Below, one piece after another: positions 24,001 to 27,000 of a stretch of 57,034 nt of DNA. The position numbers were made by a program. Source of the DNA: Stx2-converting phage Stx2a_1447; sequence record AP012536; one strand, given 5' to 3'. Numbering within the stretch: the stretch's first letter is position 1; every line of letters begins with the position of its first letter.

Positions 24001-27000
24001 GCATGTATCAAAAATCCGTACGCTGGTAAATGAAGCGAATATGCTGATTGATTTTGTCCTGGCTGATACAGGCAAAGGGAAAATAACAAAGGCGGATTGA
24101 TGGGGTGGCTAATGATATCAGATAAACTCATAACGCTGGTGAAGAGCCTCTGTGTACTTGTCGGCATTTCATTTTTAGTCATGCTGGTTGCCATTTTCTT
24201 TTCCACCGCCTGGCGAGTCCTGACGTTATCGGGACTGGTGGGGTGAAAGAGAGATGAACCGTGTTCTGTGTGTGGTGATTATTGTCCTGGCGGTTGGCTG
24301 TGGTGCGCTGTGGCTGGCAACAAACCATTACCGTGACAACGCGCTCACCTACAAAGCGCAGCGCGATAAAAAAGCCAGAGAGCTGGAACAGGCGAATGCC
24401 ACCATTACTGACATGCAGGTGCGCCAGCGTGATGTTGCTGCGCTCGATGCAAAATACTCGAGGGAGTTAGCCGATGCGAGAGCTGAAAATGAAACTCTGC
24501 GTGCTGATGTTGCCGCTGGTCGTAAGCGCCTGCGGATCAACGCCACCTGCTCCGGTACCGTGCGTGAAGCCACCGGCACCTCCGGCGTGGATAATGCAAC
24601 CGGCCCCCGACTGGCAGACACCGCTGAACGGGATTATTTCATCCTCAGAGAACGGTTGATGACAATGCAGAAGCAGCTGGAAGGGGTACAGGACTATATC
24701 CGCACTCAGTGCCTGAACTAAGTTTTGCTGATGCGCCGTATCGTCGCCGTATTCCTGCATTAACAGAGACCGCAGCCCGACAGGGAGACTCCTCTGCGAG
24801 AGTGTGCGGGGATAATCAAAAACGATACACACCGGGGTTTACCGCGTAAACGGAGCGCGGCGTTCTCCCCTCATGGTCGCCCGTCCGGTGCGATGGTGGA
24901 AGAAACTGGAATCTGTTCAATAAAAAAACTGCCGTGTTGGAGTCACAGCAGTAATGTACTGATTGGGTAGAAGATTATTATTGTTATGCTTTATTTTTAT
25001 TCTATATGGCTGATTATTTCAATTCGGAATTAATACAGCTAATGTCTGTGAGTTTTTATAAATTCAGCAATATAAAGAAATAGTTATATGAACAGCCATC
25101 GCAGAGCATACTGTGTATCATTCTTTTTTATAGTCAACTGACGGGCATATTTTATGTCTGCTGCCAGCTCCCGGCGGCAAGATTCAATGACCCACGCAGA
25201 AAAATTTTCTGAACCTTTCTGGTCAAGAGCGATGTTAATTTGTTCAATCATCTGGTTTGGAAATCGGATGTTGCGGGTTGTTGTTCTGCGGGGCTGGTTT
25301 TTCGATGACATTTTCTTTCCTCTGGTGACAAGCTATATGGCGAGGATTTTACATGGCTGTGCTTCGTACGTTACCGGGCAGAATCAAAACTCTGAACACC
25401 CGGCGGGTGAATATTCTGAAGGGTGAACAGCGTCGTGTCAGTGGCAGTGCACGTGTTTCCCTCAAGCGTCATATCTGGCTCAGGGATGCCGGGCAGTGCT
25501 GTCTCTGTGGTCGTGTGGTTGACCTCTGTGACAGTGAACTCGATCACCGAATTGCACTTCAGTTCGGTGGTGGTAATGAGGAGACGAATCTCTGGACGCT
25601 CTGTACCGAATGCCATCGACAAAAGTCTGCTCGTGAAGCGGCGGGTGGTATGCCGGACCCGACGCTGCCGGAGGTGTCCGGAGGTCATGGCAGGGCAGAC
25701 GATATCATCGGACTGTGACCCGCCCCGGGGGGGATCATCCGGCGAAAAAAACGATCGCTCCGGACACCGCCCCCCCTCTCACGCAGAGAAAAAATTCCCG
25801 TTTCAGGGCAGTTAACATGTTAACTGGCTGTCCGGGCATTTTTGCGGTTTTTATCTTTATTATTCAGTTTGTTGTGCGGAAAAAATGTTAACTGGCTTTT
25901 TCAGCAAATGTTAACCAGGCAGCAGTTAACATTTGCGGCATGAGACGCCGGGAAAAATGGGCTGAACCATACCCGGCTGAGTGCGTTCTGGACCCGGGAG
26001 GAGGCTGTGCTGACAACGCAAAAACGAAAATTTGCGCTGGCGCTCATGTCCGGGAAAAACAAAACAGCGTCAGCCATTGCCGCTGGTTATTCGGCGAAGA
26101 CCGCCAGGGTTAAAGGCTCGCAGCTGGCAAAAGATCCGGAGGTGCTTGCGTTTATAGCCCGTAAACAATGCGAGACGGTGGAGGTGGATGAGGTTCCTGT
26201 TTACCGGCAGAAAAAATCAGAGCAGGAGGATAAACCCCGTCGCCGTGAGGCGGCTGCAATACCACAGCCGGACGAAAACAATCCGGAGATGCCACCGTCC
26301 GCGGTGATGTCTCCTGGTATTGAATATATGGAGGATGGTCTTCCCGATCCGGTGAAAGCGATGGGGCGTCTTCTGGTGGAGAACATTAATACCGACCCCA
26401 GGCTGGCGCTGGATGCGGCTTATAAGCTGGCGCAGTTCACGCACCATAAAAAAGGGGATGCCGGTAAAAAATCGGCAAAAGGTGACGCGGCGAAAAAAGC
26501 GGCTAACCGTTTTGCGGTGCCACCACCACCCCGCCTGGTGGTGAATAATGATAATGAGGGCAACGGATGATACCTGTGTGGAGCACGGCCTGCCCGGACT
26601 GGGCAGAGCGCCTGAAAAAGGGGCTGTCGATTATTCCGGCTCCGATTTATCCGGACCAGGCTGCACATGCACTGGCGATTTTTAAACAACTGCGGATTGT
26701 GGATGCACCGGGTAGCCCGACATTCGGGGAATCCTGTGCACCGTGGGTGTTTGACCTGGTGGCGGCCCTGTTTGGCTCCTACGATGCGCAGACCGGTGTT
26801 CGCCATATCAAGGAAGTGTTTATCCTTATCCCCAAGAAAAACTCGAAGTCCACGCTGGCTGCGGGGATCATGATGACGGCGCTGTTACTGAACTGGCGGC
26901 AGGCGGCGGGCTACACCATTCTGGCCCCGACCGTGGAGGTGGCGGCTAACGCCTTCAACCCTGCCAGGGATATGGTACGACGGGACGATGATCTGGATGA

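Follow-up and report, generated by a model that had tools for sequence, protein, structure and literature searches.

The packaging site of phage lambda is laid out as cosN-I2-cosB (R3-I1-R2-R1), and the specificity of the lambda small terminase subunit (TerS) is determined by its N-terminal DNA-binding domain (PMC4856287). The TerS protein of HK97, which lacks a defined helix-turn-helix domain, has a single 15-bp site at +15..+29 from the cut that is read as the DNA leaves the central tunnel (PMC11331095), and the SPP1 protein makes multiple contacts around the cleavage region (PMC9611059). Phage-inducible chromosomal islands (PICIs) of the EcCICFT073 type keep the cosN and cosQ of their helper and have a cosB of their own, read by Rpp-TerS (PMC6739421). 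Here, we compare with these systems the intergenic DNA between an HNH endonuclease gene and terS in the Shiga toxin 2 (Stx2)-converting phage Stx2a_1447 (sequence record AP012536; the whole stretch analysed, 57,034 nucleotides in length, is referred to as the window). This region contains a cluster of GTTAAC repeats that is probably a cosB-like TerS recognition array of cos, with cleavage 31-41 bp to its left by the large terminase subunit (TerL) and the HNH protein.

The cluster is real: the sequence at 25800-25940 contains five copies of (A)ATGTTAAC, all within 25808-25936, and these lie between the HNH gene (25353-25718) and terS (26007-26570) as proposed in the first-pass annotation of the window. 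The four to five copies given there are now counted as five, and two copies rather than one are inverted and three are forward: the forward copies begin at 25817, 25885 and 25908, and the reverse-strand copies occupy 25808-25818 and 25922-25932. The shared core, first given as ATGTTAAC(T/C)GG, is corrected to (A)ATGTTAAC because the third forward copy goes on as CAGG. When scored against ATGTTAACYRG, three copies are exact and two have one mismatch. The layout is as follows:

25809-25826, no strand: repeats 1 and 2, a perfect 18-bp palindrome, CAGTTAACATGTTAACTG (inverted-repeat search).
25827-25884, no strand: spacer rich in T, including two T5 tracts (25839-43 and 25848-52) and an A6 tract (25880-85).
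25885-25892, + strand: repeat 3, ATGTTAAC, with an extended copy, AAAATGTTAACTGGCT, at 25882-25897.
25908-25915, + strand: repeat 4, ATGTTAAC, in the left arm (25904-25915) of a 12-bp inverted repeat.
25925-25932, - strand: repeat 5, ATGTTAAC, in the right arm (25925-25936) of the same inverted repeat.

The inverted repeat formed by repeats 4 and 5 (GCAAATGTTAAC-N9-GTTAACATTTGC, 25904-25936) is perfect over its 12 bp. The 57-kb window has 18 GTTAAC sites in all, five of them packed into 120 bp. The largest number of sites per 125 bp in 300 first-order Markov simulations was one (235 runs), two (64 runs) or three (a single run), and a Poisson estimate for the cluster is approximately 2e-6. The cluster is thus non-random; chance would yield two or three copies at most.

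The position of the cut is provided by phage Lys8385Vzw, which has a packaging module approximately 99% identical to that of the window. PhageTerm analysis assigned this phage to cos packaging, with CGCCCCCCCT as the 3' cohesive-end sequence found at the genome end (PMC7946995). Its record ends with ...GGACACCGCCCCCCCT and begins with CTCACGCAGAGAAAAAATTCCC, and because this junction matches window 25777|25778 exactly, the cohesive end is assigned as follows:

25768-25777, + strand: cohesive-end sequence CGCCCCCCCT, a 10-nt 3' overhang with nicks on either side (from the Lys8385Vzw termini; the record start, CTCACGCAGAG, is window position 25778).

By homology, the left end of the virion DNA is placed at window 25778, 31 bp before the first repeat. 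Since the published termini map to the left of the first repeat, the repeats are not the cut site: the earlier proposal that the cluster is a candidate packaging site holds for the recognition part of cos but not for cleavage, which falls outside of 25811-25934. The accompanying prediction of cos-type packaging is supported, by proxy, by the near-identical module of Lys8385Vzw, in which the ends lie in the same intergenic region and are defined 10-nt 3' extensions, not the permuted, terminally redundant ends of headful packaging. A homologous terminus has been described for Acinetobacter phage fEg-Aba01: its 10-nt 3' ends, CGCCCCCCAT, were identified using PhageTerm, confirmed on a heat/cool restriction gel and called 'HK97 type' (PMC7354433). 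This phage carries a TerS related to that of the window, and three direct AAGTTAAA copies are located between its physical left end and terS.

Phage phi330 was set aside as a source of termini: its record starts at terL and includes a note that mentions cohesive ends, and the corresponding paper has no packaging data. A full-text literature search with the cohesive-end sequences returned no phage paper among the matches listed. Separately, one contig (L073, IMGVR_UViG_2681813226_000009) starts at the window equivalent of 25777, 1 nt away from where the Lys8385Vzw record begins; assembly may have captured a physical end here, or the contig may be broken at the C7 homopolymer.

The suggestion that the repeats are binding sites for TerS is supported by comparison, as the repeat core changes with residues 35 and 38 of the predicted recognition helix. 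The window TerS is a Terminase_2 protein (Pfam PF03592) with PDB profile matches to SF6 TerS (4zc3, 3zqp and 2cmp). In an AlphaFold2 model, the N-terminal region has a predicted local distance difference test (pLDDT) score of >90 and includes helices 19-25 and 33-41. These form a confident helix-turn-helix that aligns with the DNA-binding domain of SF6 TerS, and residues 35 and 38 belong to its second helix:

26103-26129, + strand: predicted recognition helix of TerS, residues 33-41 (AlphaFold2 model).

In a systematic pass, residues 35 and 38 were compared with the repeat motif in 94 unique intervals extending from the cohesive end to terS:

V/I35 and S38: 5-6 copies of GTTAAC and none of the other variants (53 unique sequences).
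C35 and S38: 5-7 copies of GTTTAY, on two unrelated backbones (3 unique sequences).
V35 and W/Y38: 1-6 copies of GTTACA, in satellite-like islands (6 unique sequences).
S35 and S38: a single dyad over the terS start (32 unique sequences).

There are no exceptions to this association among the 94 unique sequences, and unbiased 7-mer counts give the same motifs.

Individual loci illustrate both retention and replacement of the motif. In L107, the TerS of which is 67% identical to that of the window (...TARVKGSRL...), the spacers have diverged, yet the layout and six GTTAAC copies are kept; a locus with isoleucine at position 35 (L129) also keeps GTTAAC. In L114, L130 and the partial locus L115, TerS is 68-88% identical and has a V35C change (...SARCKGSQL...). 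Every copy in these three loci is GTTTA(T/C), and the layout is unchanged: TATAAACATGTTTATA, ATGTTTATACCC, then ATGTTTAC-N9-GTAAACAT. All five copies have this form in L114 and L130, although the TerL proteins of these two loci are 97% identical to window TerL. The counterpart of spacer 25827-25884 is still T-rich in both L107 and L114, though its sequence has diverged. For the cysteine-35 phage L127 (P0068), which has a backbone like that of Salmonella phage FSL SP-016, GTTTAY repeats were predicted beforehand, and at least six (AT)GTTTATACCC copies were found in its 189-bp interval. L127 groups with SP-016 and not with L114: its HNH protein, TerL and TerS C-terminal domain are 77%, 89% and 73% identical to those of SP-016, respectively. 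Across the sequences compared, motif class tracks TerS residues 35 and 38 and not HNH, TerL or the TerS C-terminal domain. Because the motif varies in concert with the TerS helix, independently of HNH and TerL, we regard the repeats as putative TerS sites.

The position of cos in this phage group and the idea of a cosB are already known. The GTTAAC repeats and their covariation with TerS were not found described in a literature search, the coverage of which was incomplete.

The cut is surrounded by a core of approximately 85-110 bp that is conserved from Escherichia to Acinetobacter. In the window, it includes the following elements:

25716-25737, no strand: near-palindrome TGACCCGCCCCGGGGGGGATCA with a G-run, at the left edge of the conserved cos core (inverted-repeat search).
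25724-25808, no strand: conserved cos core (G-run, GATCGC and GGACACCGCCCCCCCTCTCACGCAGAGAAAAAATTCCC), kept in 19 loci from at least 12 genera and in satellite-like islands.
25778-25808, no strand: 31-bp spacer with an A6 tract, from the cut to the first repeat; CAGA(G)AAAAAATTCCC is almost unchanged throughout the family.

The 19 loci are distant terS relatives found with an alignment query; a scan of genome contigs with a single TerS protein found none. They derive from Kluyvera, Phytobacter, Serratia, Atlantibacter, Kosakonia, Enterobacter, Citrobacter, Erwinia, Pantoea, Proteus, Buttiauxella and Acinetobacter, with TerS identities of 37-49% (and one short Acinetobacter match of 57%). All share the core after the HNH gene, in the form of a G-run followed by GATCGC..GGACACCGC(G)CCCCCTCTCACGCACAGAAAAAATTCCC. 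For SP-016, the sole match at the DNA level is the non-coding segment 25723-25824 (79%). In all relatives, the G-run (6-9 bases) keeps its distance from the cut, approximately 40 nt to the left of the cohesive end. The near-palindrome TGACCCGCCCCGGGGGGGATCA, which overlaps the stop codon of HNH, might be an element on the left side of cos that acts in termination or in contact with HNH or TerL. In PPompW prophages (L211 1046-2504, LC567822.1), the IS110-family element ISEc20 abuts the CCCCGGGGGGG near-palindrome left of cos, at the window equivalent of 25729. These prophages have tRNA genes and Q upstream of ISEc20; the lysis genes and HNH are missing, and cos, terS and terL remain.

To the right of the cut, most of the 19 relatives have a terS gene that starts only approximately 45 nt past the cohesive end, and in most the ATG sits within a dyad, GTAAAC-ATG-TTAAC. 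In alignments with relatives, the window palindrome at 25809-25826 is the orthologue of this terS-start dyad. In the Stx-phage lineage, an added segment of approximately 180 bp separates the palindrome from the present terS start and contains the other three copies. The window terS has a GTG start with GGGAGGAGG just before it; in L107 and L114, the start is ATG. A 24-codon open reading frame (ORF), MLTGCPGIFAVFIFIIQFVVRKKC (25817-25891), begins at the ancestral terS ATG and stops within repeat 3. The possibility that it encodes a small hydrophobic peptide was weighed: its length is unchanged in L107, but it is judged to be probably non-coding because only 14 codons are left in L114. Expansion of the cos-terS interval to approximately 190 bp with extra copies has occurred at least twice: in the Stx-phage lineage (window 25827-26006) and in the SP-016-like phage (L127 1040-1200). 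In two other loci (L206 and L208, ~1190-1210; TerS ...ARSQGSRL...), the start codon is GTG and is covered not by the usual inverted dyad but by a direct pair, GTTAAC-GT-GTTAAC; these loci may represent a further specificity or layout class.

The conserved core is also present in a set of E. coli islands: L108/L109, L117-L126 and L173-L177 (P0059 type), L112/L113 (P0053) and L128 (P0082). Besides a terS of their own, these islands have genes for a primase-helicase (D5_N/DUF5906 or AAA_25), for DUF4222 or AlpA and for a capsid-like protein with the HK97 fold; they have neither HNH nor terL. Their cos core is of the phage type (the left half of the L173 core is nearly identical to window 25727-25782) and is followed by AAAAGTTACAC repeats of the GTTACA(C) type, in one to at least six copies. 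The island TerS proteins have W or Y at residue 38, and their C-terminal part closely matches that of window TerS. The islands look like satellites that use the TerL and HNH of this phage group. The L122 island adjoins phoQ, and the L112 island adjoins an AIDA-type autotransporter gene.

The genes of the packaging module in the window are the following:

25353-25718, + strand: HNH endonuclease gene, 121 aa, directly left of cos (Pfam HNH, 7e-7; PHROG 589 'HNH endonuclease').
26007-26570, + strand: terS, 187 aa, Terminase_2/SF6-like (Pfam and PHROG matches).
26567-28228, + strand: terL, 553 aa, HK97-type large terminase (Pfam TerL_ATPase and TerL_nuclease).

The order is therefore HNH, cos, terS, terL, with HNH directly adjoining cos and the terminase genes and a protease-capsid fusion gene following terL; phage relatives have an HNH gene at the matching place. 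The sole PDB match for window TerL is 6z6d (E = 9e-10, residues 84-534), which we take to be the HK97 large terminase. On the basis of HNH adjacency, this TerL match and the 10-nt 3' ends of relatives, the module is assigned as an HNH-assisted, HK97-type cos system, except for its TerS, which is of the SF6/SPP1 family.

With respect to HK97 cos (with gp74 as the HNH protein), the window has the same order of HNH, cos, terS and terL, a homologous TerL, 10-nt 3' ends and a putative TerS recognition region a few turns downstream of the cut. It differs in that its TerS has an SF6-like helix-turn-helix and is not of the HK97 gp1 type, and in that the DNA has a multi-copy array spanning approximately 125 bp in place of a single 15-bp site. 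The SF6/SPP1 G1P proteins belong to the same TerS family and share the N-terminal helix-turn-helix fold; however, those phages use headful packaging from pac, their ends are permuted and their sequence specificity is weak, whereas the window system is of the cos type with a clear motif.

The resemblance to lambda cosB lies in the DNA. In both, repeats of mixed orientation are found beside the nick site, on the side where terS lies and packaging begins (31 bp off the cohesive end in the window), with an A-tract spacer to the cut (a presumed analogue of I2) and an AT-rich segment within the array that, in the window, may be bendable. The motif class also covaries with the TerS DNA-binding domain, as specificity does between lambda and phage 21. 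The differences are in the ends (10-nt 3' in the window, 12-nt 5' in lambda), in TerS (SF6-like Terminase_2 as opposed to gpNu1, with its winged helix-turn-helix), in the presence of an HNH protein in the window module and in the IHF consensus, which was not found in 25778-26006.

Taking these comparisons together, we infer that TerS binds the repeats, that the DNA is wrapped or bent and that TerL and HNH divide the labour of cutting. The N-terminal helix-turn-helix of TerS would read ATGTTAAC half-sites, with residues 35 and 38 of helix 33-41 setting which motif variant is accepted. A TerS oligomer would use several of its DNA-binding domains to contact the palindrome (+32..+49) and the three distal copies (+108..+155), and the T-rich spacer may allow the DNA to bend between them. 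The array would in this way anchor terminase on the left chromosome end and position the nucleases on the core, where the conserved TerL and the HNH protein presumably act together. The cut would be made around CGCCCCCCCT (25768-25777), inside the family-conserved core, leaving 10-nt 3' cohesive ends, and packaging would start rightwards through terS.

Several observations weigh against this model. The termini belong to Lys8385Vzw, a phage with a near-identical module, and not to this prophage, and TerS binding to the five-copy array is deduced from covariation. Most of the 94 sequences are close relatives, and independent switches are few: approximately two to C35 and two or three to W/Y38, with S35 forming one large group. 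Since the classes are also distinguished by residue 32 (T/S) and by other positions, the assignment to particular residues is only correlative. In 61 close variants, 25778-26060 is nearly invariant and the repeats are no better kept than the spacers; because conservation among close variants cannot separate the two, distant relatives were needed. Most of these relatives get by with one dyad at the start of terS, and the extra copies of the window may thus be dispensable or have a second role. Finally, no match to the IHF consensus, WATCAANNNNTTR, with one mismatch or fewer is present in 25778-26006.

The dyad of the distant relatives also raises the question of regulation, as it overlaps the ribosome-binding site and start codon of terS in 32 sequences, a typical place for autoregulation, and palindromes and inverted repeats are typical of dimeric regulators. 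The repeats could accordingly be operators for terS or the late operon, bound by TerS or another regulator, with packaging recognition not being their main role. We consider this unlikely. A promoter scan of 25300-26300 found no forward-strand sigma-70-like promoter, and it is for this reason that the operator reading was demoted; the only nearby match is weak, on the reverse strand and made of the motif itself. The repeats in the window stop 70 bp short of the terS start, and the islands and the Acinetobacter phage have direct repeats right behind the physical DNA end. The covariation fits binding by TerS, which the packaging model needs as well, such that regulation would largely add to packaging recognition and not replace it; in this sense, TerS may autoregulate its gene at the ancestral terS-start dyad.

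Binding of the repeats by a protein other than TerS (HNH, TerL or a host protein) is very unlikely. HNH and TerL must act in this region, but the motif of L114 differs from that of the window despite the near-identity of their TerL proteins, L127 has the L114 type of motif with HNH and TerL proteins that group with SP-016, and the islands, which have TerS but lack HNH and terL, have a repeat type of their own.

A purely structural role is more improbable still. According to this explanation, 25904-25936 and the palindrome at 25809-25826 would act as a DNA cruciform or hairpin, or as a stem-loop in the late transcript. A perfect inverted repeat with 12-bp arms and a loop of 9 nt would suit such a role, and both of its arms have changed together in L114 and L130 with complementarity kept. 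However, the predicted RNA fold of 25875-25945 is marginal (z = -1.9; 9 of 200 shuffles fold at least as well), an Rfam scan of the sequence gave no match, isolated direct copies such as that at 25885 have changed in concert too, and the repeats of the islands, L127 and the Acinetobacter phage are mainly direct and unable to pair. Least credible is the notion that the extra copies are functionless duplication leftovers of the ancestral terS 5' end (ATG TTA AC...) from the ~180-bp insertion: the ancestral terS start has its orthologue in the first palindrome and the motif corresponds to the first codons (M-L-T) of TerS in relatives, but the copies are kept where the spacers diverged (L107), have changed in concert in the C35 lineages and occur in arrays that arose at least twice on different backbones.

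Recognition of the repeats by TerS, the reading that we prefer, has a possible extension to the islands. Residues 35 (V/I, C or S) and 38 (S or W/Y) might constitute an evolvable packaging-specificity code beside a shared cut site, a code that the islands would exploit with a helper cos core, GTTACAC repeats and a chimeric TerS with a helper-type C-terminal domain, so redirecting the TerL and HNH of Stx phages to satellite DNA. We put this forward tentatively, as a proposal that is plausible but falls somewhat short of probable. Like the EcCICFT073 PICIs, the islands keep a helper-type cos core and replace only the repeats, which would redirect packaging via cosB specificity. Unlike them, the islands encode a complete TerS, whereas Rpp reprograms the lambda-type TerS of the helper; this is closer to the TerS strategy of the SaPI elements. 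To our knowledge, TerS-based piracy of this kind is undescribed for cos phages of Gram-negative bacteria.

The region analysed here is 100% identical to that of Stx2-converting phage Stx2a_WGPS2 and 95-99% identical to those of BP-4795, 2851, 1717, YYZ-2008 and many Stx1a and Stx2c phages; by this similarity, the window is classified as a prophage of the Stx2a_WGPS2/BP-4795 type. Stx2a_WGPS2, BP-4795, 2851, 1717 and many Stx1a and Stx2c phages spread Shiga toxin genes, and the packaging signal decides which DNA enters their particles. The comparison maps a cut site, a conserved core and variable recognition repeats, and provides a testable rule that relates TerS residues to a DNA motif. There is still debate about how far helix-turn-helix small terminases recognise sequence, and natural, matched variants of protein and site are useful material in this regard. 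Islands seemingly built for this machinery bear on the elements that are mobilised at Stx phage induction. Of these results, the rule linking residues to motifs and the satellite-like islands with a TerS of their own most merit follow-up.

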